The notes beneath the pieces were generated by a model that did no database searches, had not been told where the DNA came from, and was given only the letters and a program-made list of their open reading frames with translations. This document shows, piece after piece, positions 4,737 to 14,966 of a stretch of 64,000 bases of DNA (position 1 is its first letter; every line of letters starts with the position of its first letter). Origin of the DNA: Vulcanimicrobiota bacterium (GTDB taxonomy: Bacteria > Vulcanimicrobiota > Vulcanimicrobiia > Vulcanimicrobiales > Vulcanimicrobiaceae); the NCBI GenBank assembly GCA_963812155.1, contig CAWETW010000003.1, forward strand, positions 1,216,001-1,280,000, in the 5' to 3' direction. The position numbers and the translations under genes are program-made.

Positions 4737-5206
4737 CGTACCGAGCGCCGGGCAACGCGTCACGCTCGGCTCGGTCGCGGTGCTCGCGCTCCTCGCTTCC
4801 GCGCTGCTGGCGTTTTCGCGGCCGGTGGAGATGATGGTCGACGGCGAGCGCGTCGAAAGTGACGTGCCGCCCGTGACGACCGCCGACGACCGCGTCTTCG
4901 TCCCGATTCGCAGCTTTGCTCGCGCTCTCGGCGCCCAGACGTCCGGCGAAGACGGCCACATCGACGTCGTGCGTGGAAGTCAATCGCTGCGCGTGAAGGC
5001 CGGCGACGTGCGCGCCACGGTCAACGGCAAGCCGATGACCTTGACGCACGCGCCATTTCTCGTGCGCGGCCGCGTCATGGTGGAACTCGACACGCTTGCC
5101 GGCGCCTTCAACGTACGCGCGCGTTACGACGCGCGCACCGCGCGCATCGAGCGTGTTGACGCCCGGTACCGGACAAGCTCCGGCGTCCCCAGTAAGCACG
5201 CAATAA
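4733..5206 (+). CDS. secreted copper amine oxidase N-terminal (stalk) domain protein; frameshifted near both ends
   Basis: Signal peptide, DRVFVPIRSFARALGA, ATVNGKPMTLTHAPFLVRGRVMV; plausible C-terminus VLTPGTGQAPASPVSTQ* in shifted frame ending 5206. Confidence 0.7.
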
Positions 5207-5218
5207 GGGGGCCGCACG

Positions 5219-6157
5219 ATGCGCTCGTATGCCGTCGCCCTCTCGGTGCTCTGCGCCACGCTGCTTGCGGCATGCGGCGAACGTGGACCCGAAGCGTTCA
5301 ACGCGGTTCCCGCAGCTGCAGCCTTCGGTGGAGGTATGCAGGGCGCGTGGATGTCGCCGGCGGCCAAGAATCCCGACCTGCTCTATATCGCTACCGGCGA
5401 CGACGCCTACATCGTGACCTATCCGGGCGGGAAACTCGTGGGTGCCTTGGGCCTCAACTTCGCGTCGTCGCTGTGCACGGACCGTGCCGGGAATGTCTTC
5501 TTTCCAGTGGGAAAAGTCGTGGAGTATCAGCACGGGAGCCTGCGCCCGTCGCGCGTGCTGGATACCGACAATCTCATTGCGGTAAGCTGTGCGGTCGATA
5601 GGACGACGAACGATCTCGCCGTCATGTGCTGGTCCTCGGGGGCCAGTGCCGTCTTAGTCTATCCAAACGAGCAGATGACGCCCGTGTTCTACGGCACCGG
5701 ATTCGACGCCATCGGTCAGGGCGGCTATGACGACAAAGGCGACCTTTTCGTGGATGGAAACAATAGCCTGGCCGAACTTCGAAAGGGCAGCTCAGAGTTT
5801 GCGTATTATTCGCTCGACTACCGCTTCGATCCGTACGGCGCCATCCAGTGGGACGGTACGCACATGACCATCTCGCGTCCGTCCCATCACGAGATCTATC
5901 GCATCGAGACGGCGGGGTCTTCGCTGAAGATCATCGGAACGACGCACCTTCACGATTGGCACAATCCCTATAACGGAAATTATCCGTTCGTGCAGACGTG
6001 GATTCAAGGCGGCACGTTTATCGCTCAAGACGGTATTGGGGGCGACATTGGTTTATGGCCGTATCCCGAAGGTCACGAACACACGAAGACGATTCGCGGC
6101 TTTCGCAGCGGCCAGGTCAATATTTACGGCGTCGCGGTCAGCCTCGCAAAACGCTGA
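5219..6157 (+). CDS. secreted lipoprotein, probable beta-propeller-like fold
   Basis: Lipobox LLAAC; repeated short beta motifs (LLYIA, GNVFF, GDLFVDG, IQWDG, YGVAVS). Confidence 0.7.
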   Translation: MRSYAVALSVLCATLLAACGERGPEAFNAVPAAAAFGGGMQGAWMSPAAKNPDLLYIATGDDAYIVTYPGGKLVGALGLNFASSLCTDRAGNVFFPVGKVVEYQHGSLRPSRVLDTDNLIAVSCAVDRTTNDLAVMCWSSGASAVLVYPNEQMTPVFYGTGFDAIGQGGYDDKGDLFVDGNNSLAELRKGSSEFAYYSLDYRFDPYGAIQWDGTHMTISRPSHHEIYRIETAGSSLKIIGTTHLHDWHNPYNGNYPFVQTWIQGGTFIAQDGIGGDIGLWPYPEGHEHTKTIRGFRSGQVNIYGVAVSLAKR

Positions 6158-6164
6158 CGCTCCG

Positions 6165-7691
6165 CTAGACCGATTCGGCTAAGCCTTCGGGTTCCACGAC
6201 GGGAACGACGTTTGCGGGATCCGATTTGCGGAATCCGTACGCGAAGAAGAATATCAGCCCCGCAACGAGCGCGATGACGAACCACGTCCACGTCGCGCGA
6301 GAGAGGCCGAAGACCGCGAGGAAAAGCGAGCAAACGATTCCGAGGATCGGAAAGAGTGGAACGAACGGCACGCGGAAACTGCGCGGCATATCCGGTTTGC
6401 GCTTGCGCAGATAGAGAACGCCGGCACAGACGACCGTAAACGCGATTAGCGTTCCGATGTTCACGAGGTTGAGCAGATTGTTCAGGGGCACGATGAGCGC
6501 GAGCACCGCAACGACGACGCCGGTGATGAGCGTCGTACGCAGCGGCGTCTTGAAGCGCGGATGCACGACGGCGACGGCCGGCGGCAGCATGCCGTCGCGC
6601 GCCATAACGTAAAAGATGCGCGACTGGCCGAGCAGCGAGGCGAGCGCGACGCTCGTCGTGCCGGCCAATACGCCGATGGTAATGACCCAATTGAGTGCCG
6701 GCATGTGCAGCGGTGCGAGCGCGTAGACCAGTGGATTCTTGATCGGCACCTGATTCCAAGGTACCGCGCCGACCAATACGATCGCAGTTGCGCAGTAGAT
6801 CAGCGTTCCGATCGCGAGGGCGCCGATCACGCCGACCGGTACGTCGAACTGCGGATTCTTGCACTCCTCGGCGGTCGTCGTCGCGGTATCGAACCCGATG
6901 TAACTGAAAAAGACGTACGCACCGATCGCGATGATACCGTAGGGCTGCGCCGACGACGAGTAGTCGGCCATTCCGCCGAACGGCTTGAGCGTTCCCCAGC
7001 CGATGGGGTTGAAATTGTGCAAATTGACCGCATGAAAGAGCAGCAAGCCGGCCGCGACGAAAACGACGAGGGCCGAAATTTTCAGCACGACGAAGATGTT
7101 GTTCGCCGTCGCGGATTCTCGGATGCCGACCGAAAGCAGAAGGCTCAATCCGATGACGAAGAGCGCGCCGACGACGTCGCACTGCGAGTGGGCGAGGTCC
7201 CAGCTCGACGGATTCCACCACGGTCCGTTGAAGATCAAGTTCGATTGTTGCGCCCACGCCGGCAGTGCCAAGCCCACGGTCTTGAACACGTCTTGGATCG
7301 ACGCCGAGAACTGCTGCGCGACGGGCGCTGCGCTGATGCCGTATTCGAAGATCAACGCGAAACCGATGATCCAGGCGAAGAGTTTCCCGAGCGTCGCGTA
7401 GGCGTAGGTGTACGCGCTCCCCGCGACCGGCACCATCGCGCCGAGTTCCGCGTAGCACAGTGCGGCAAAAAACGACGTAAGTCCGGCCAGCAGATAGGAG
7501 ATGATGACCGCCGGGCCGGCACCTTTGACGCCGGTACCGATGGTCGTGAAGATTCCGCCGCCGATCATCGTTCCAAGACCGATCGCGACGAGATCCTTCG
7601 CCGTTAGCGCGCGGCGAAGGATCTTGCTCTTGCTCATCTCGCGGAGCTTGTCGACGTTGGTCGTCGCGAAGAGTTCCGAGACGAATGACAT
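6165..7691 (-). CDS. APC-family amino acid permease
   Basis: GLGTMIGGGIF, CYAELGAMVPVAGSAYTY, YIGFD, SRIFYVMARDGMLP, RSFRVPFVP; many TM segments. Confidence 0.93.
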   Translation of the reverse strand: MSFVSELFATTNVDKLREMSKSKILRRALTAKDLVAIGLGTMIGGGIFTTIGTGVKGAGPAVIISYLLAGLTSFFAALCYAELGAMVPVAGSAYTYAYATLGKLFAWIIGFALIFEYGISAAPVAQQFSASIQDVFKTVGLALPAWAQQSNLIFNGPWWNPSSWDLAHSQCDVVGALFVIGLSLLLSVGIRESATANNIFVVLKISALVVFVAAGLLLFHAVNLHNFNPIGWGTLKPFGGMADYSSSAQPYGIIAIGAYVFFSYIGFDTATTTAEECKNPQFDVPVGVIGALAIGTLIYCATAIVLVGAVPWNQVPIKNPLVYALAPLHMPALNWVITIGVLAGTTSVALASLLGQSRIFYVMARDGMLPPAVAVVHPRFKTPLRTTLITGVVVAVLALIVPLNNLLNLVNIGTLIAFTVVCAGVLYLRKRKPDMPRSFRVPFVPLFPILGIVCSLFLAVFGLSRATWTWFVIALVAGLIFFFAYGFRKSDPANVVPVVEPEGLAESV

Positions 7692-7748
7692 GCGGGCCGG
7701 GGTTCGCAAGCCAGGAGACCCGCTCCCCTGCGCCCAAAGCCGCCACCG

Positions 7749-8399
7749 ATGCGTTCGACTCAGTTGGCGCTCCGCGTCTGCTTAGTCGCAGTCGCCGCCG
7801 CCTTGGCCGCCGCGGCGGCGCACGTCCTGACCGACGTCGCCGGCGACTATCTCCTGTCACACGACGCCTATGACGGCGTCGCGCATCACTCCCGGCCCGT
7901 GCTGCTTGCCTTGGCCGGCCTCGTGCTGCTCGTCGCGGCATTGCGCATCATTTGCGACCTGCTCGATCGCCGCTGCAGTTCGAAGACCTCGATGCTCGCC
8001 GCGGTGCGTGCCGCGCTCGGACATCCTGCGGTGTTTGCCGTCGCGTCGGGCGCCGCAGCAATCGCCGCGCTGGCCGGGATGGAGTTTTTCGACTGTTCGC
8101 TGGCCGGAAGAATCGCCGGCATTGACGACCTCTTCGGCGGATCGGTTGCTCTAGGCGGCGGCACCGCGCTGTTCCTCGGCGCGGCTTGCGGATGGATAAT
8201 CCACCGCTGCGTCCGGCTCGTCGCAAAATACGAAGCGCCGATTGCCGCCTTGATCGGATCGGTTCTAAAGCTCGCGACGGGCATTCCGGTCGCGGTCACA
8301 TCGCAATGCCGCGCCGCGACGGTGCCGTGCATCGCATACGCGTTGATCCTCACGCGGCAGGGCCGCAAGCGCGGACCGCCGCGCCCCGTTTTCGGCTAA
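7749..8399 (+). CDS. membrane protein with C-terminal RGPP motif; putative regulatory leader of the downstream TonB-dependent receptor
   Basis: ~4 hydrophobic segments, SHDAYDGVAHHS loop, ends RKRGPPRPVFG; 41 nt upstream of TBDR. Confidence 0.65.
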   Translation: MRSTQLALRVCLVAVAAALAAAAAHVLTDVAGDYLLSHDAYDGVAHHSRPVLLALAGLVLLVAALRIICDLLDRRCSSKTSMLAAVRAALGHPAVFAVASGAAAIAALAGMEFFDCSLAGRIAGIDDLFGGSVALGGGTALFLGAACGWIIHRCVRLVAKYEAPIAALIGSVLKLATGIPVAVTSQCRAATVPCIAYALILTRQGRKRGPPRPVFG

Positions 8400-8440
8400 T
8401 CCTCTCACACTCGTACACGCCGTAAACGGAAGGTTTTCCC

Positions 8441-10969
8441 ATGAGGAAACTCATTATGCGCGCACGCGCCTGCTGCGCGCTGCTCGCGCTCTCCGGCATC
8501 CTGGTCCCCTGCGCCGCACTCGCGGCCGCAGCGGTCGACGTCACCGGCACGGTCACCGCGCCCGACGGCACCCCGGTCGCGGGCGCTTTGGTGACGCTCT
8601 CCGCGCCCGGTCGCATGAAGTCCGCAACGACCGACGCGCGCGGCTCGTTCGCGATCTCCGGCGTCACGTTCGGCACCTATGCGGTGCACGCCGCCGCTCC
8701 CGGTTTTGCAACGATCTCGGAGCAGACCGTCACGATCGACGAGCGGAGTTCGACGATCTCGGTGGTGCTCGAACGCGCGACCACCAACTCGCTCACGGTG
8801 ATCGGCCACGTGCGCGCGTCGGCGGGCGAAACCGTCTCGACCGCATCGGCGCCCAGCGTGACCCTCAGCGCGCAGGATGCGGCAGCGGCGGGCGTGACGG
8901 CGGTTTCTTCGATGGTATGGAATCAGTTGAATACGACGCCGGTCATTCCGCTGGGCGGAGGCAGTAACGCAACTGCAGCCTTCGCGCTGCGCGGGCCGGA
9001 CCCGACCGAAACGCTGGTCGATATCGACGGACACGCGATGAATAACGGAAACACGGGCGACTACGATCTCTCGCTGCTCGATCCGGCCGCACTGCAAAAC
9101 GTACAGCTGGTCTATGGAATCGCACCGTCGTCACTGGTCGGCCCCGACACGCTCGGCGGCGCAATCAACGTGCAGACGCTGCAGCCGACGCTCGCGCCGC
9201 ACGCGCTGGTACGCCTCTTCGGCGGCTCCTACGGAAGCTTCGGTGAGACCGCGCAGGCCACCGGTTCCGATCAGCTCTTCGGGTACGCGCTCTCGTTTCA
9301 CGGCGCGTCGTCGAACGGATCGATCAATCAAACCGTTCTAGCGCCTCCCGACGCCGGCGCGCCGCCGGCGCGGCACGAGACGCTGCAATCCGTCGGCAGC
9401 GACTCATACGGAACGTCGTTCATATCGAAGCTGCGCTATCAACTCGGCGGCGACCAAGGCTACGGGTATCTGCAGCTCAATTTTCGCAATCAAGCGATTT
9501 CCAAGGACGACTCCGCGCTGCTGACGACGTATACGCCGCCGGGCTTTGAAGGCGGCGGCGGCGACGACGCCGTCCCCGGCAAAGCCAACCCCAACGACTT
9601 ACCGCTCCTCGGCGGTTACCAAAGTTTCGCCGGCACGAACCTCACGGCGCACCAATCGAACTACGGATTCGACGCGCAGGTTCCATTGGGCAACGAAAAA
9701 CTCGACGGCGCGCCCGCGACGATGCTGCTGTTGAGCCATCTCACGTCGGTGAACTCGCAATCGGTCGACGGTCCCGGCGAAGGCGCGCAGCCCTACCTTT
9801 ATAACCAGCACGACTCATTGGGCGACGACTGGCTCGAGATCGACCATCGCTTTCCCTCGGGCTTGCTCTCATTCAAGTACGATTTAGGGACGGAGTCGCT
9901 CACGACGAACTACGTGCAAAGCCAAATCACCGCCGAGCTGGTGCACGCTCCCGTTCGCGCCAATGCATTTTCGCCGAACGACGAAGGGCCGCCAGTCAAC
10001 AACCTGGGGCTATCGCAGACCACGCGCTCGATGGTGCTACGGTACAACGGCGACCCGACCAGCCAGATTCACTATTCGCTGGCTGCGTATTACAGCAACT
10101 ACAGCACGTTCGGGACGAGCTTCGACCCGCGCGGCAGCGTCGTGTGGACGCCGACGGGCAGCACCTCGCTGCGCGCGTCGATCGGTTCGACGTTCCAGAC
10201 GCCGCAACTTTCCGAGCTGGTCGTGCTCCCGCCGGCCGACCGGGTTCCCGTCGGCGGCATCATCTTCATCGGAAACGCGAATCTCAAACCCGATTTCGCC
10301 ACCGAATACGATTTCGGCGGCGAACAGATCTTCGGCCGCCTGGGGCATCAGCTGCACCTCTCCGCGGACATCTACCAAACGAACTTGCGCGGACCGGCCA
10401 ATCAGCTCGAGGTCGACCCCGTCCCGGGCTGTCAAAGCGACCGGCATCCCAACCGCATCTGTCCGCTGAGTTACCCGGTCAACGCGGGCAACGGTACCTA
10501 CCGCGGGATCGATCTCACTGCGGAGCAGCAACTCGGTCCCTCGTTCCGGCTGCGCGCCGGTTGGGACGTCGACAGTTCCTTCATCACGGCCGTTCCGGAG
10601 AATATTCAAGACGGAACGCTCGTCATCGGCGAACAGACGCTCGGACAACCGTTGCACAAGGCGTACTTCGGCGTGGATCGACAGGTGCCGCAAGGTCTCG
10701 TCTACGGCGCGCAGCTCAACTACGAGGGTTGGTACAACGAACTCAACCGCACGCCGTACGCTACCCTCGACGCGCACGTCGCCTACCGTCACGGTGGCTA
10801 CGAGTTCGGCGTCTACGGAACCAATCTGACCAACGTCTACGCGACGCCGTTCACCATCGTCGGCGGCGGCGTACTCTACGGCACGGTGCCGGGCAATCCG
10901 ATGATCACACCCAACGCCTTCAATCTCGAGGGAGCGAAGCTCGTTTTCGTAATCACGCGCTCAATTTAA
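8441..10969 (+). CDS. TonB-dependent receptor with N-terminal carboxypeptidase-regulatory-like domain
   Basis: Signal peptide, VTGTVTAPDGTPVAGALVTL, plug FALRG..TLVDIDG, LGGAINVQT, GNANLKPD, NLTN, C-terminal beta strand. Confidence 0.9.
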   Translation: MRKLIMRARACCALLALSGILVPCAALAAAAVDVTGTVTAPDGTPVAGALVTLSAPGRMKSATTDARGSFAISGVTFGTYAVHAAAPGFATISEQTVTIDERSSTISVVLERATTNSLTVIGHVRASAGETVSTASAPSVTLSAQDAAAAGVTAVSSMVWNQLNTTPVIPLGGGSNATAAFALRGPDPTETLVDIDGHAMNNGNTGDYDLSLLDPAALQNVQLVYGIAPSSLVGPDTLGGAINVQTLQPTLAPHALVRLFGGSYGSFGETAQATGSDQLFGYALSFHGASSNGSINQTVLAPPDAGAPPARHETLQSVGSDSYGTSFISKLRYQLGGDQGYGYLQLNFRNQAISKDDSALLTTYTPPGFEGGGGDDAVPGKANPNDLPLLGGYQSFAGTNLTAHQSNYGFDAQVPLGNEKLDGAPATMLLLSHLTSVNSQSVDGPGEGAQPYLYNQHDSLGDDWLEIDHRFPSGLLSFKYDLGTESLTTNYVQSQITAELVHAPVRANAFSPNDEGPPVNNLGLSQTTRSMVLRYNGDPTSQIHYSLAAYYSNYSTFGTSFDPRGSVVWTPTGSTSLRASIGSTFQTPQLSELVVLPPADRVPVGGIIFIGNANLKPDFATEYDFGGEQIFGRLGHQLHLSADIYQTNLRGPANQLEVDPVPGCQSDRHPNRICPLSYPVNAGNGTYRGIDLTAEQQLGPSFRLRAGWDVDSSFITAVPENIQDGTLVIGEQTLGQPLHKAYFGVDRQVPQGLVYGAQLNYEGWYNELNRTPYATLDAHVAYRHGGYEFGVYGTNLTNVYATPFTIVGGGVLYGTVPGNPMITPNAFNLEGAKLVFVITRSI

Positions 10970-10970
10970 A

Positions 10971-10998
10971 CCTTCGACTGCGGCGCTCAGGGTGACAC
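10971..10998 (+). repeat. REP-like interspersed repeat, copy 1 (short)
   Basis: CCTTCGACTGCG-GCGCTCAGGGTGACAC; same ends as copies at 38385 and 60633. Confidence 0.7.
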
Positions 10999-11595
10999 GG
11001 GAGGCGGGGGCGACGAGTTCGGATTCCAGCGGTATTCCGGCTCGTTGCGGTCGTGGTTGATCCAACGAGACCAGACGAAGAGCGCGTCGGAGAGACGATT
11101 GAGAAAGCGCGCGGCTTCGACCGGTACCGCTTCGGTTTCGGCCAGTGCGACGAGACGGCGTTCGGCGCGGCGGCAGGTCGTGCGCGCGACGTGCAGTTGC
11201 GCGCCCGGGAGCGATCCGCTCGGGAGAATGAAGGCGTTGAGCGGCGCGAGATCCGCTTCAGCCTCGTCGATCCCGCGCTCGAGCGCGGCAACTCCGGCGT
11301 CGCCGGCGCCGGGCCCGCCGTCGCCGAGATCCTCCGGCGGAGTCGCCAAGCGGCTTCCGAGGTTGAATAGCACGTCTTGCGTCCATGCCAGCCATGCGTC
11401 GAGCCGCGCGGCTCGAGGCGACTGGTTGCAGAACGCGCGCAACTCGGCCCGAGCAACGCCGATCGCGCTCGATAGTTCGTCGACGGTTCCGTAGGCGTCG
11501 ATGCGCGGCGCGTTCTTCTTGATGCGCGCGCCGCCCACGAGTCCGGTCGTTCCCGCATCGCCGGTGCGGGTGTAGATGCGCGTATGCTTCGGCAT
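10987..11595 (-). CDS. PduO-type cob(I)alamin adenosyltransferase
   Basis: IYTRTGDAGTTGL, AYGTVDELSSAIG, FILPSG, LHVARTTCRRAER, FLNRLSDALF. Confidence 0.93.
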   Translation of the reverse strand: MPKHTRIYTRTGDAGTTGLVGGARIKKNAPRIDAYGTVDELSSAIGVARAELRAFCNQSPRAARLDAWLAWTQDVLFNLGSRLATPPEDLGDGGPGAGDAGVAALERGIDEAEADLAPLNAFILPSGSLPGAQLHVARTTCRRAERRLVALAETEAVPVEAARFLNRLSDALFVWSRWINHDRNEPEYRWNPNSSPPPPVSP

Positions 11596-11687
11596 CCGGC
11601 GAGGCTTCGCCGAACGCGCGTCCATCCCCGGAACGTTCGCTCGTGAGGGAAGGCGGCCCGCCGCACGCGCGCGAAGCGGGGCCGGTC

Positions 11688-13151
11688 ATGTCGCAAGCCC
11701 CAGGATCGGCCGTCCTCAGGGAGATTCCTTCGAAAGCGGCCGACCTCTCCGCATGGTACACCGCCGTCTGTTTGCGTGCCGAGCTCGTCTCGTACTCGCC
11801 GGTCCGCGGTTGCATCGTGCTGCGCCCCTACGGATACGGCCTGTGGGAGAATTTGCAGAAAGATCTCGACGCGCGCTTCAAAGCGACCGGACACGAAAAC
11901 GCCTACTTTCCGCTCTTCATTCCCGAGAGTCTGCTCGCAAAGGAAGCCGAGCACGTCGAAGGCTTCGCCCCGGAGGTCGCCTGGGTAACGCGCGGCGGCA
12001 GCGAAGAGCTGACCGAGCCGCTGGCAATCCGGCCGACGTCGGAAGTCGTGATCGGCACGATGTACGCGCAATGGATCGAGTCGTACCGCGATCTGCCGAT
12101 CCTCATCAATCAGTGGGCGAACGTCGTGCGGTGGGAAAAGGCTACGCGGCCGTTTCTGCGCACGATGGAGTTTTTGTGGCAGGAGGGTCACACCGCGCAC
12201 GCCTCTGCAGAAGAAGCGCGCGCCGAAACGCTGCAAATGCTCGACGTCTATCGCGACTTCGCCGAAAACGTCGCGGCGGTACCGGTATACGCCGGCATCA
12301 AAAGCGAGAGCGAGCGGTTTCCCGGCGCGGTCGAAACGTATTCGATCGAAGCGCTCATGCCCGACGGGCGCGCGCTGCAGTCGGCAACTTCGCACGATCT
12401 GGGGCAGAACTTCGCGAAAGCCTACGACATTACGTTTGCCGACGCGAGCCAGCAGATCAAGCACGCGTACACGACCTCGTGGGGGATGTCGTGGCGCATG
12501 CTCGGCGCCCTCATCATGACGCACGGCGACGACCGCGGTTTGCGCATCCCGCCGAAGATGGCGCCGCTCGAAGCGGTGTTCGTTCCGATCGTACGCTCGC
12601 AGGACGACCGGGCCATTTCGGTCTGCCGCGAGGCTTGCGAAGAACTGCGCAAGGCCGGCTTTCGCGTGCGCGTCGACGAGCGCGATCAGCAACCCGGCTG
12701 GAAGTACAGCGAGTGGGACGTGCGCGGCGTCCCGGTGCGAATCGAGGTGGGTCCGCGCGACGTGGATGCGGGAACGGTGGTTGTCGTCCGGCGCGATCGC
12801 GACAAAGGACATCCCGAGCAGCGGACCACGGTCGCGCTCGAAGCGCTCGCGCGAACCCTGCCGGAGATACTCGACGCCGTGCAGGCGTCGCTCTATGCAG
12901 ACGCCGCCGCCTTTCTCCGCAATCACACGCCGCCGGCGCACGACCGGGACGCGTTTCTTTCGATGTGCCGCGAACGCGCCGGGATGATCGACATTCCGTG
13001 GTGCGGACGGCCGTCGTGCGAGGCCCACGTGAAGGCAGAAACGGGAGCGACGACACGAAACCTCCGGCCGCTCGCCGAAGGGGCCGGAAGCCGCTGCGTC
13101 GCGTGCGGCGAACCTGCGAAAGTGAGCGCATATTTTGCTCAGTCGTATTAA
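11688..13151 (+). CDS. proS: proline--tRNA ligase (archaeal/eukaryote-like type, no editing insertion)
   Basis: HVEGFAPE, IRPTSE, QWANVVRWE, FLRTMEFLWQEGHT, SHDLGQNF, C-terminal Cys and FAQSY end. Confidence 0.96.
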   Translation: MSQAPGSAVLREIPSKAADLSAWYTAVCLRAELVSYSPVRGCIVLRPYGYGLWENLQKDLDARFKATGHENAYFPLFIPESLLAKEAEHVEGFAPEVAWVTRGGSEELTEPLAIRPTSEVVIGTMYAQWIESYRDLPILINQWANVVRWEKATRPFLRTMEFLWQEGHTAHASAEEARAETLQMLDVYRDFAENVAAVPVYAGIKSESERFPGAVETYSIEALMPDGRALQSATSHDLGQNFAKAYDITFADASQQIKHAYTTSWGMSWRMLGALIMTHGDDRGLRIPPKMAPLEAVFVPIVRSQDDRAISVCREACEELRKAGFRVRVDERDQQPGWKYSEWDVRGVPVRIEVGPRDVDAGTVVVVRRDRDKGHPEQRTTVALEALARTLPEILDAVQASLYADAAAFLRNHTPPAHDRDAFLSMCRERAGMIDIPWCGRPSCEAHVKAETGATTRNLRPLAEGAGSRCVACGEPAKVSAYFAQSY

Positions 13152-13701
13152 GGCAGTGCCGTTGGCCGCGATGCTGGCGGCCGTCACGGCGTTCGCGTCG
13201 CCTTCGGCGCGAGCGGCCGTCCCGTCGCTGGCCGACGTGGACGCGACGGCTCGCGCGTCGGGCAATCGGATCGACGTCGCCACCCGCATCGGCGAGAGCA
13301 TCTTCGCGACTTCCTGGCCGGCGCAAGTCAGCCAAGTTTCCGCCAATCAAATGGATCGGCACTTAATCGTCGGCATACGCCTCTGGGGCGTGAAGTTTCA
13401 CGACGAAATGACGCGGCGGGAGTTCGTCACCGAGGTCACCGACCTCATCGCCCGAGCGTACGCGGCGGCACCTGCGGTCGAAGAGGTCGACGTCTGGGCG
13501 AGCGTGCCGATCGAAGTCGCTAGAGGCGAAATCGTCAGCGGCGACCTAGCGGTTCCCACGTCGCGAACCGTCTTCAGCATCACCTCGCGTCGCGGCGAGG
13601 CGGCCGCCGAGATCGAAACGCGCGCGAGCGGCCAGCGCGAAGGCGTGTTCTGGGACGAAGAATGGGCGCGCACTGCGTTTGCGAAACAGGAGGCACTCTA
13701 G
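13135..13701 (+). CDS. hypothetical secreted protein (start uncertain)
   Basis: Signal peptide ending SARA; bridges proS and M16 peptidase with overlapping junctions. Confidence 0.7.
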   Translation: MLSRIKAVPLAAMLAAVTAFASPSARAAVPSLADVDATARASGNRIDVATRIGESIFATSWPAQVSQVSANQMDRHLIVGIRLWGVKFHDEMTRREFVTEVTDLIARAYAAAPAVEEVDVWASVPIEVARGEIVSGDLAVPTSRTVFSITSRRGEAAAEIETRASGQREGVFWDEEWARTAFAKQEAL

Positions 13702-13709
13702 CCAAACCG

Positions 13710-14966
13710 ATGTATCGCAAAACGACGTTTCCCAGTGGATTGCGCGTGCTGACCGAAGCCATGCCTTCGGTGCGCTCGGTTTCGATCGGCATTTGGGCGG
13801 ACGTCGGCTCGGCGGCTGAAACCCACGACCGGCGCGGCATCTCGCATCTCGTCGAGCACATGCTGTTCAAGGGCACGCAGCGCCGCAGCGCGCGTGCGAT
13901 TGCCGAGACCATGGACGGCGTCGGCGGGAATCTCAACGCCTTCACCGACAAAGAATCGACCTGCTACTACGCCAAAGTCATAGACCGCCACGCACCGCTG
14001 GCGCTGGACGTGCTCGCCGACATGTTTCTCAACTCGGTCTTCGACTCGGCCGAACTCGGCAAAGAGCAAAAGGTCGTGCTCGAAGAGATCAAGATGTACG
14101 AGGACTCGCCCGACGAACTGATCCACGACCTCTTTCTGCAAACGATGTGGAGCGGCGCGAATCTGGGCGAGCCGACGATTGGATTCACCGACACCGTCGT
14201 GCGGTTTACCCCCGACGATTTGCGCGCCCACATGAAACGGCACTACGCGCCCAACGCCGTCGTCGTCGCGGCGGCCGGAAACCTCGAGCACGAGCACTTC
14301 GCGGAAATGGTGGAACGGGAGTTCGCCGCCTTCGGGGGCGCGTGCGTCCAGCCGCGACCCGAAGCGCCCCAAACGACCCCGAACCGTTTGATCCGCCACA
14401 AGGACTCGGAACAGGCTTACGTGGTGGTGGGCACGCGAGGTCTTTCGGTGCGCGACGAACGGCGCTACTCGCTGTCGTTGCTCGATACGCTGCTCGGCGG
14501 CGGCATGTCGAGCCGTCTCTTTCAAGAGATTCGCGAAAAGCGTGGCCTGGTCTACACGGTCTATTCCTTCCAAGCCGCATACCGCGGCGCCGGACTCTTC
14601 GGGGTTTACGCCGGCACGTCGCCCGAAAACGTGCAGTCGTATCTCGATCTGGTGTCCGAGCAGTTTACGAAGGTGCGTAATCTGCGGGTGGATTCCGGCG
14701 AACTGCGCCTCGCCAAGGAGCACGTCAAAGGAAACCTCACGCTCTCGCTCGAGTCGACCTCGAGCCGCATGATTCGTTTGGGCCGCAACGAGTTCGCGCT
14801 GGGGCGGCACGTTACGCCGGAAGAAATCGAACAGCGTATTGACGCGGTCACCGCCGGCGAGGTGCAAGAGCTGGCGAACGAATTGCTCGCGGAAAAGAAT
14901 CTGGGACTATGCGTCATCGGCCCGGTCGACGAGTCGGCGATCGCGTGGAACCGTGACGCCGCTTAG
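13710..14966 (+). CDS. M16 (pitrilysin-family) zinc peptidase
   Basis: HLVEHMLFKGT inverted zincin motif, NAFTDKE, LGGGMSSRLFQEIREKRGLVY. Confidence 0.95.
   Translation: MYRKTTFPSGLRVLTEAMPSVRSVSIGIWADVGSAAETHDRRGISHLVEHMLFKGTQRRSARAIAETMDGVGGNLNAFTDKESTCYYAKVIDRHAPLALDVLADMFLNSVFDSAELGKEQKVVLEEIKMYEDSPDELIHDLFLQTMWSGANLGEPTIGFTDTVVRFTPDDLRAHMKRHYAPNAVVVAAAGNLEHEHFAEMVEREFAAFGGACVQPRPEAPQTTPNRLIRHKDSEQAYVVVGTRGLSVRDERRYSLSLLDTLLGGGMSSRLFQEIREKRGLVYTVYSFQAAYRGAGLFGVYAGTSPENVQSYLDLVSEQFTKVRNLRVDSGELRLAKEHVKGNLTLSLESTSSRMIRLGRNEFALGRHVTPEEIEQRIDAVTAGEVQELANELLAEKNLGLCVIGPVDESAIAWNRDAA

Follow-up and report, generated by a model that had tools for sequence, protein, structure and literature searches.

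The window analyzed here is a 64,000-nucleotide stretch of a Vulcanimicrobiota bacterium genome (assembly GCA_963812155.1, contig CAWETW010000003.1, positions 1,216,001 to 1,280,000 of the forward strand), and all coordinates below are counted from its first letter. On its plus strand, a leader open reading frame (ORF) at 7749–8399 precedes the gene for a TonB-dependent receptor at 8441–10969. The leader encodes 216 amino acids (aa), with four membrane helices and a cytoplasmic tail, and matches no Pfam or NCBIfam family; the receptor (842 aa) carries CarboxypepD_reg, Plug and TonB barrel domains and begins at an ATG (8441) common to its close relatives. Near the end of the leader lies an arrest-type RGPP motif (8370–8381, residues 208–211), followed by five codons (RPVFG) and TAA. 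An original prediction, made from the DNA letters, had read this arrangement as a translational switch. Its account of the 216-aa frame with about four transmembrane (TM) segments, of the motif and of the downstream receptor was accurate, the four hydrophobic segments matching the AlphaFold2 helices; the 41 nucleotides (nt) that it set between motif and receptor are the gap from leader stop to receptor ATG, and RGPP itself begins 71 nt before that ATG. Most likely, the locus encodes a ribosome-arrest leader, found in soil bacteria, that controls translation of the receptor via an RNA hairpin.

Taken alone, neither the motif nor the six-nucleotide complement described below exceeds chance: 37 of 19,808 six-frame ORFs of at least 80 aa in the genome end in R[GA]PP, and the complement arises in 18% of shuffles. 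It is conservation across homologs that beats chance. Of the 37 ORFs, the window leader is the only one to combine a strongly hydrophobic segment with a long ORF immediately after it. By sequence search, 31 proteins were obtained, query included, and R[GA]PP is present in 31/31 close homologs. Among 50%-identity representatives, a search by profile detected 249 relatives at E ≤ 0.001 (the best 150 of 249 are listed); of the 178 proteins then in hand, 175 keep the motif on which the original prediction depended (109 RGPP, 66 RAPP), and two of the three exceptions are fragments. A further search with a wide alignment added two proteins only. Since a profile deprived of the tail still found 177 proteins, 174 of them with the motif, the motif is not an artifact of the query.

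In the available portions of two studies of such peptides, stalled RAPP peptides have the third motif residue in the P site (PMC12992588, PMC10951233), and RGPP gives the strongest arrest in several contexts, the motif alone not being enough (PMC12992588). Several of these peptides failed to arrest ribosomes of E. coli (PMC12992588). With the register taken by analogy from CruR toeprints and ApdA/ApdP structures, the predicted P-site residue of the window leader is Pro210 (8376–8378) and the A-site residue Pro211. Helix 4 ends near residue 160 and the motif begins at 208, which places the localization signal more than 30 residues before it. By this analogy, ribosome arrest at the leader RGPP is very probable.

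Of 30 genome loci, 26 are labeled Vulcanimicrobiota or Eremiobacterota, and four bear other depositor labels. Within the phylum, matches occur in 88 of 201 sampled genomes, all from three of 21 families, with at most five copies per genome. Our literature search, in which supplements could still hold a mention, found no paper describing the family. The leader is a member of an unnamed four-helix membrane family of Vulcanimicrobiota, within a published class of switch.

The original prediction had also expected homologs to sit beside a transporter gene, and they do: a TonB Plug domain was found in 50/50 ORFs scanned downstream of strongly matching leaders, a scan that left out loci at contig ends or with fragmentary leaders (L010, L026, L029), one duplicate, and L031–L060, whose flanks are short. 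Among 40 metagenome loci, which partly derive from the same organisms as the others, the motif is present in all 36 complete leader frames (of 41), and a receptor comes next in 25 of the 26 with room downstream. The Arg codon of the motif lies 61–72 nt before the receptor start in 55/68 distinct close loci. This spacing holds even where the leader stop is 50–190 codons further on, and it is thus the position of the motif that matters and not that of the stop. Tandem leader–receptor–leader–receptor units about 3.3 kilobases (kb) apart (L101, L102, L103, L024) give each receptor its own leader.

Some observations on the receptors stand apart from these counts. Six of the 68 downstream receptors (L013, L017, L035, L040, L059, L103) carry a His/Asp-rich N-terminal extension, a weak hint of divalent-metal handling. 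In the genome of the window, a related receptor (G000:C4:111552-114027, minus strand) lies split across two frames without a leader, another gene ending just upstream; relatives of this receptor type (L107–L112) do have leaders.

The last leader codons contain the 5′ arm of the predicted hairpin (8386–8396; CCGTTT and CGGC). The leader stop and a C-rich, G-poor unpaired loop follow (8397–8418), and the 3′ arm (8419–8434; GCCG and AAACGG) overlaps the receptor's Shine-Dalgarno (SD) sequence, GGAAGGT (8428–8434), all on the plus strand; the 16S tail of the genome ends CACCTCCTTT. In 55 relatives, the stretch matching 8397–8418 holds 427 C and 104 G. CCGTTT (8386–8391), AAACGG (8424–8429) and GGAAGG (8428–8433) all lie where they had first been placed, and the proposal that the first two pair to mask the SD is supported by selection on the pairing across loci. 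The stem in the window is longer than was claimed, with six base pairs (bp) plus another 4 bp between CGGC (8393–8396) and GCCG (8419–8422), and the pairing of 8386–8396 with 8419–8429 has a probability of about 0.99.

Evidence for selection comes from duplex permutation, which was used in place of column-wise covariation because the stems shift register between loci. Over 55 loci, the duplex between leader end and SD has −13.1 kcal/mol for cognate and −9.3 kcal/mol for swapped partners, a preference that none of 10,000 permutations equaled; for a control segment upstream, no cognate preference is seen (−9.32 vs. −9.29 kcal/mol), and synonymous recoding weakens the duplex in 51/55 loci (−15.4 vs. 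−10.8). The stems themselves differ by lineage, for example CCCGTT/AACGG, CTCCCG/CGGGAG and ACTCCCGC/GCGGGAG. CCT occupies the two stalling Pro codons in 35/68 and 19/68 leaders, compared with 92/1,671 in receptor genes. These stalling codons, rare in these genomes, pair directly with an AGGAG SD (L021, L025, L044, L047, L054, L060, L101–L103 and others); the window leader has CCG CCG at these positions.

The footprint of a stalled ribosome reaches to about +15. With the P site at the third motif residue (+1 = 8376 in our model) and a covering footprint to +15, the outer stem would be covered, and the modeled cost of opening the binding site in the window falls from 16.8 to 8.8 kcal/mol. Hairpin-mediated coupling of the stall to receptor translation is strongly favored, and a switch of the SecM/CutF type, in which the stall would open the hairpin, is likely. 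A local GGAA/TTCC hairpin had also been proposed at the SD. It can be drawn on paper, but has a probability of 0.00 in the free RNA and 0.32 with the stall site covered and is not kept in most relatives; folding and poor conservation rule it out as the switch. A further hairpin, AUGAG-GAAA-CUCAU at 8441–8454, extends over the start codon of the receptor, and close relatives show compensated versions of it. As a conserved element it was rejected, being no stronger than under synonymous recoding (32/55; −4.09 vs. −3.76 kcal/mol).

AlphaFold2 places the leader helices at residues 2–35, 48–76, 93–119 and 133–160, followed by 162–177 and a low-confidence tail (mean pLDDT 87.8, pTM 0.78), and hydropathy averaged over the family likewise gives four segments. 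Acidic loops 1 and 3, with on average 4.8 and 4.3 Asp/Glu, contrast with a basic loop 2 (5.1 Lys/Arg) and a basic tail (12.2 Lys/Arg); from this charge pattern and the positive-inside rule, both leader ends would be cytoplasmic and loops 1 and 3 periplasmic. A stretch of codons 25–49 (7821–7895), comprising the end of helix 1 and the outward-facing loop, holds nine residues conserved at 94–100% over 176 sequences: H25 (171/176), D29 (176/176), D33 (171/176), D39 (172/176), Y41 (166/176), D42 (176/176), H46 (175/176), S48 (171/176) and R49 (175/176). At the outer end of helix 3 lies M-E-x-x-D (codons 111–115, 8079–8093; M111 176/177, E112 158/177, D115 177/178), which becomes M/L/I-E-x-x-E in divergent paralogs. 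From sequence, this conserved acidic/His/Met set, facing the periplasm, may be a ligand site, and its carboxylate-rich, Cys-free makeup would point away from Cu(I) and towards Mn, Fe(II), Zn, Ni, Co or a harder cation.

The composition of this site differs in part from what had been described. The supposed His cluster shrinks on comparison, His47 being kept in 46/176 sequences, and the conserved set consists of two His, five or six carboxylates and one Met. Within the proposed HDxYDxxxHxS loop, D39, Y41, D42, H46 and S48 are kept, while H38 is found in only 118/176. The several Cys residues are present, eight in number (11, 69, 76, 116, 147, 154, 187 and 194), but form no CXXC, and none is more than 22% conserved; they were rejected as ligands for that reason. 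A GGS at 130–132 (8136–8144) caps helix 4 at a fixed spacing from the arrest motif: the linker from the GG cap to the motif Arg, itself poorly conserved, spans 76–79 residues in 157 of the 164 proteins where it could be measured. Fold searches gave no clear match (best Z 8.3 at a root-mean-square deviation of 8.8 Å, under the bar for helical bundles; none at E ≤ 0.001), an outcome that shows neither a new nor a different fold.

A mechanism can be proposed from these features. Comparison across the family shows the leader to be a conserved four-helix inner-membrane protein with both ends inside and its acidic/His site facing the periplasm. The ribosome would stall with Pro210 in the P site, in the manner of tested RAPP/RGPP peptides, at which point all four helices, ending near residue 160 and about 50 residues back, would be outside the exit tunnel and in the membrane. 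By comparison and folding, the codons that the stalled ribosome would cover otherwise pair with the ribosome-binding site of the receptor; a stall would turn the receptor on, and completion of the leader would let the hairpin refold. Periplasmic metal bound at H25/D29/D33/H46/M111/E112/D115 may tighten the bundle and release the stall, a step suggested by the nature of the residues and by the logic of an importer: if metal releases the stall, synthesis of the importer would be confined to times of ion shortage. Metal as the signal seems to us somewhat better than an even bet. For arrest, hairpin coupling and metal signal all together, we put the probability at about 0.5.

Several points weigh against this mechanism. 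Related loci are not independent, and the counts therefore overstate independence; for the 68-locus set, six loci with unsure frames were dropped and the receptor start with the best SD score was taken. For the window, covering the stall site raises the unpaired probability of the SD bases by little (0.44 to 0.48), because weaker alternative stems form. Only 42/68 close loci gain more than 1 kcal/mol over a control footprint, and 13/55 cognate duplexes rank below 15th of 55. As to the metal, the receptor matches no substrate-specific NCBIfam family above cut-off, no recurring metal-handling gene adjoins the close-subfamily loci, the polarity in CutF is opposite (metal promotes the stall), and the ten paralogs that precede genes for LCP cell-wall enzymes, described below, would suit a sensor of the envelope or of insertion no less than one of metal.

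Other explanations account for part of the same evidence. A membrane-insertion or secretion monitor, similar to MifM or SecM, is unlikely, though we rank it ahead of the other rivals. Pulling by Sec/YidC would free the stall, and insertion would be hindered by the acidic residues, or tied by them to the proton-motive force, such that slow insertion induces envelope genes. Such a monitor would follow the established logic of SecM, MifM and VemP and would suit both the fixed helix-to-motif spacing and the fact that every identified downstream product is an exported or membrane protein; yet no sec or yidC gene occurs among 90 downstream ORFs scanned (five of them without a Pfam match), a single genome can hold as many as five copies, and clade-specific polar sets track the downstream class, which a generic monitor would not need. 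Somewhat less likely still, the leader could be mainly a working inner-membrane partner of the receptor, in uptake, reduction or chaperoning, with stall and hairpin coupling synthesis only. The bundle is modeled as well folded (mean pLDDT as above), unlike CruR, which is described as poorly structured, and its conserved polar site could serve transport or catalysis. Set against this are the occurrence of the same scaffold before unrelated LCP, redoxin, AcrB and cytochrome c genes, the leaderless receptor in the same genome, the absence of a transporter fold among the matches, and the limit that a robust stall five codons from the end would presumably place on the yield of free protein.

It is also conceivable, if doubtful, and in our ranking behind both of these, that the same switch reads something other than a transition metal, such as periplasmic protons, which would titrate the Asp/Glu/His set in acid habitats, or else Mg/Ca or a small organic ligand. 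The five or six conserved carboxylates as against two His, the invariant Tyr, Ser and Arg, and the replacement of His25 by Asp in the LCP-linked and one receptor-linked clade would all agree with this. However, a Met beside two His is a typical mark of transition-metal sites, and Met111, so accompanied, is near-invariant; the copper-gene context of the His-rich clade and the His/Asp-rich receptor N-termini noted above argue in the same direction. Least probable of the four is transcription attenuation of the CruR type as the main output, whereby the stalled ribosome would shield a C-rich site from Rho and its release would lead to early termination in the receptor gene. The genome encodes rho, relatives have an intergenic loop rich in C and poor in G, no intrinsic terminator was found on the plus strand between 7500 and 11200, and this is the mechanism of CruR. 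But the gap is 41 nt rather than the 162 nt of CruR, and selection on SD pairing points to control of initiation, to which Rho polarity may be a second layer.

The reading preferred here, an arrest leader that exposes the receptor SD and is released by a periplasmic metal, would resemble CutF and SecM in output and CruR in target. The closest published class is that of Fujiwara et al. (EMBO J 2025, PMC12992588), in whose available portions RAPP/RGPP leaders are enriched before TonB receptors, almost all with a signal sequence, and four-TM, His-bearing arrest peptides are reported in Streptomyces. At least two members of the present leader family (MBC5799958.1 and MBV8153103.1) appear in the RAPP source table of that work as hypothetical proteins before TonB receptors; the available main text makes no mention of the family, its ligand set, its hairpin or its phylum, and leaves open downstream regulation by the arrest, its mechanism and the source of the releasing force. 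The window leader shares with this class a length below 300 aa, a C-terminal R[GA]PP, a localization signal and a downstream TonB receptor, and departs from the TonB-linked leaders in having four membrane helices where they have a signal sequence. The idea of a different, polytopic leader family, with which the original prediction ended, is backed by comparative tests for motif, receptor linkage, hairpin and distinctness from DUF2946, but the class is less new than was implied.

CruR of Bordetella pertussis (Bp2923, DUF2946/PF11162) is likewise a TonB-receptor leader with a C-terminal RAPP-type motif, at least in the portion of its description available (PMC9426467). It also has a fixed sensor-to-motif spacing (CxxC–RAPP) and a stall that permits downstream expression, its arrest being shown in the accessible part of PMC12992588. 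However, CruR as there described is 145 aa long with an export signal, a CXXC, a 162-nt gap and Rho-dependent termination, whereas the window leader lacks a CXXC and any conserved Cys, spans the membrane with four helices and is set 41 nt from its receptor gene, with a hairpin that would mask the SD. A search for PF11162 gave no match in the window leader at E ≤ 1, none in 28 relatives at E ≤ 0.5 and none in the genome, the controls being positive in 2/14. As had been suspected, the leader family is not DUF2946: it lacks both a PF11162 match and a CXXC about 45 residues before RAPP. A single export signal and a length below about 150 aa, the trait shared by DUF2946, CruR and CutF, are likewise absent from this 216-aa protein with four hydrophobic helices. 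CutF of Rhodobacter capsulatus, also DUF2946, is similar as a nascent chain that senses an extracytoplasmic signal and whose stall melts a stem-loop at the ribosome-binding site; it differs in being secreted and shorter than 150 aa, in its proline-rich, EF-P-dependent motif, in that copper promotes the stall, and in its target, a detoxifying oxidase (available portions of 10.1101/2022.11.11.516240 and 10.1101/2025.02.05.636593).

The Streptomyces lividans leaders SLIV_18480, SLIV_27375 and SLIV_33595/33605 come nearest in topology, with four predicted TM segments and R[GA]PP; in the portion of the source available, SLIV_18480 has a predicted site of three His and a Met, and SLIV_27375 precedes a thioredoxin-domain gene (PMC12992588), as some of the paralogs treated below do. 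Four actinobacterial leaders upstream of YcnI (from 4/8 loci), taken as proxies for SLIV_18480, gave no hidden Markov model match to the present family and an hhalign probability of 0.3–3.6%, and unlike it they have a polar loop between helices 3 and 4. In the ESM Atlas, unnamed Actinomycetota look-alike clusters score 0.96, and named clusters no higher than 0.77. Further parallels are SecM, MifM and VemP, in which a stall near the C-terminus opens an SD-masking stem (available portion of PMC10987492), and ApdA, ApdP and ApcA, which share the RAP/P stall chemistry (available portion of PMC10951233). All six regulate sec/yidC genes and are freed by translocation force, unlike the present leaders, with 0/90 such genes downstream.

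Beyond the close family, 40 weaker matches (E about 1e-10 to 1e-27) were taken for analysis of paralogs. These align with it over their full length (hhalign probability 99.7%) and retain the GG cap, [MLI]-E-x-x-E and a terminal R-x-P-P, with the loop residues swapped; among the paralog loci L061–L099, four leaders end in NRPP (R-P-P-P) in place of R[GA]PP. The ORFs that follow comprise 12 receptor-like ones (three by N-terminal domain only), 10 LCP, 7 redoxin, 2 cytochrome c, one each of DUF1007, AcrB, SCO1 and a weak BNR repeat, and five without a match, some of them probably in wrong frames. A quick tree of 92 leaders shows clustering by downstream class, with 12 changes as against 38 when shuffled, a difference that near-copies inflate; LCP forms one group, and redoxin and SCO1 fall inside a His-rich clade with 99% support. 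The label "core" on this tree was set by profile score, and its single clade is therefore partly circular. Six His-rich leaders lie about 3–5 kb from YcnI genes, and CopD-like genes, named by resemblance, adjoin in the four such YcnI loci read, or their kin. This context supports metal sensing for the His-rich clade and modularity for the scaffold, and names no signal for the clade of the window. Separately, two loci with NRPP-type leaders (L066, L073) have behind the leader exported proteins of about 310 aa that start with H-V-x-C-G-D-R-V-F-P and match no Pfam family.

A broader and more tentative reading would be that Vulcanimicrobiota duplicated and retuned one four-helix sensor scaffold as a general means of envelope control. 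Fold, M-E-x-x-[DE], spacer and stall would be kept, and the periplasmic ligands swapped by clade: Asp-rich in one receptor group, His-rich before redoxin/SCO1, Asp/Asn-rich before LCP and the other receptor group, and an NRPP variant before cytochrome c-like genes. Such a scaffold might read non-copper cations (Mn, Fe, Mg, lanthanides) or protons into stalling without a transcription factor or riboswitch, with Pro codons in some cases serving as the anti-Shine-Dalgarno. The leader family offers a clean test case, with a modeled membrane sensor, few near-invariant candidate ligands, a fixed spacer, a selected hairpin and ligand-swapped paralogs. Should a non-copper cation prove to be bound by carboxylates in the membrane, nascent-chain sensing would be widened beyond Cys/Cu leaders, and the family could assign substrates to an abundant group of uncharacterized receptors from a soil phylum with few cultured members, Vulcanimicrobium alpinum among them. 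If the class-level reading alone stands, what is gained is a new, well-supported family within a type of regulator already published.

The genes flanking the pair are a divergent APC-family amino-acid permease (6165–7709, minus strand) and a PduO-type cobalamin adenosyltransferase (10987–11625, minus strand) that is convergent with the receptor. An APC permease also occurs near 31/90 loci, which amounts to ordinary synteny, and the neighbors of the window's clade are housekeeping genes. A link to vitamin B12, suggested by the adenosyltransferase and a weak BtuB plug similarity, was rejected as synteny, given that the gene is convergent and CirA scores higher. A plasmid search gave no match, an Rfam search of 5000–14000 gave no riboswitch (the sole match was a chance microRNA at E 0.22), and a promoter scan gave nothing on the plus strand. 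Only about 60 nt separate the window leader from the divergent permease start (7690–7748), and several leaders lack an SD at the usual distance (the window, at 7690–7748, and L035, L040, L044, L050, L051, L054, L058, L059, L101 and L102). In many leaders, TAGGA[CT]G stands some 35 nt upstream of the start and is followed by a GC-rich stretch ending CGTCGAAGCG; the former is possibly a −10 element with a short untranslated leader. Finally, a 210-aa exported protein, which we take to resemble YceI, recurs near 13/90 loci (L022–L024, L101–L104, L111, L114, L145, L146, L149, L163) and is convergent with the receptor in L103.

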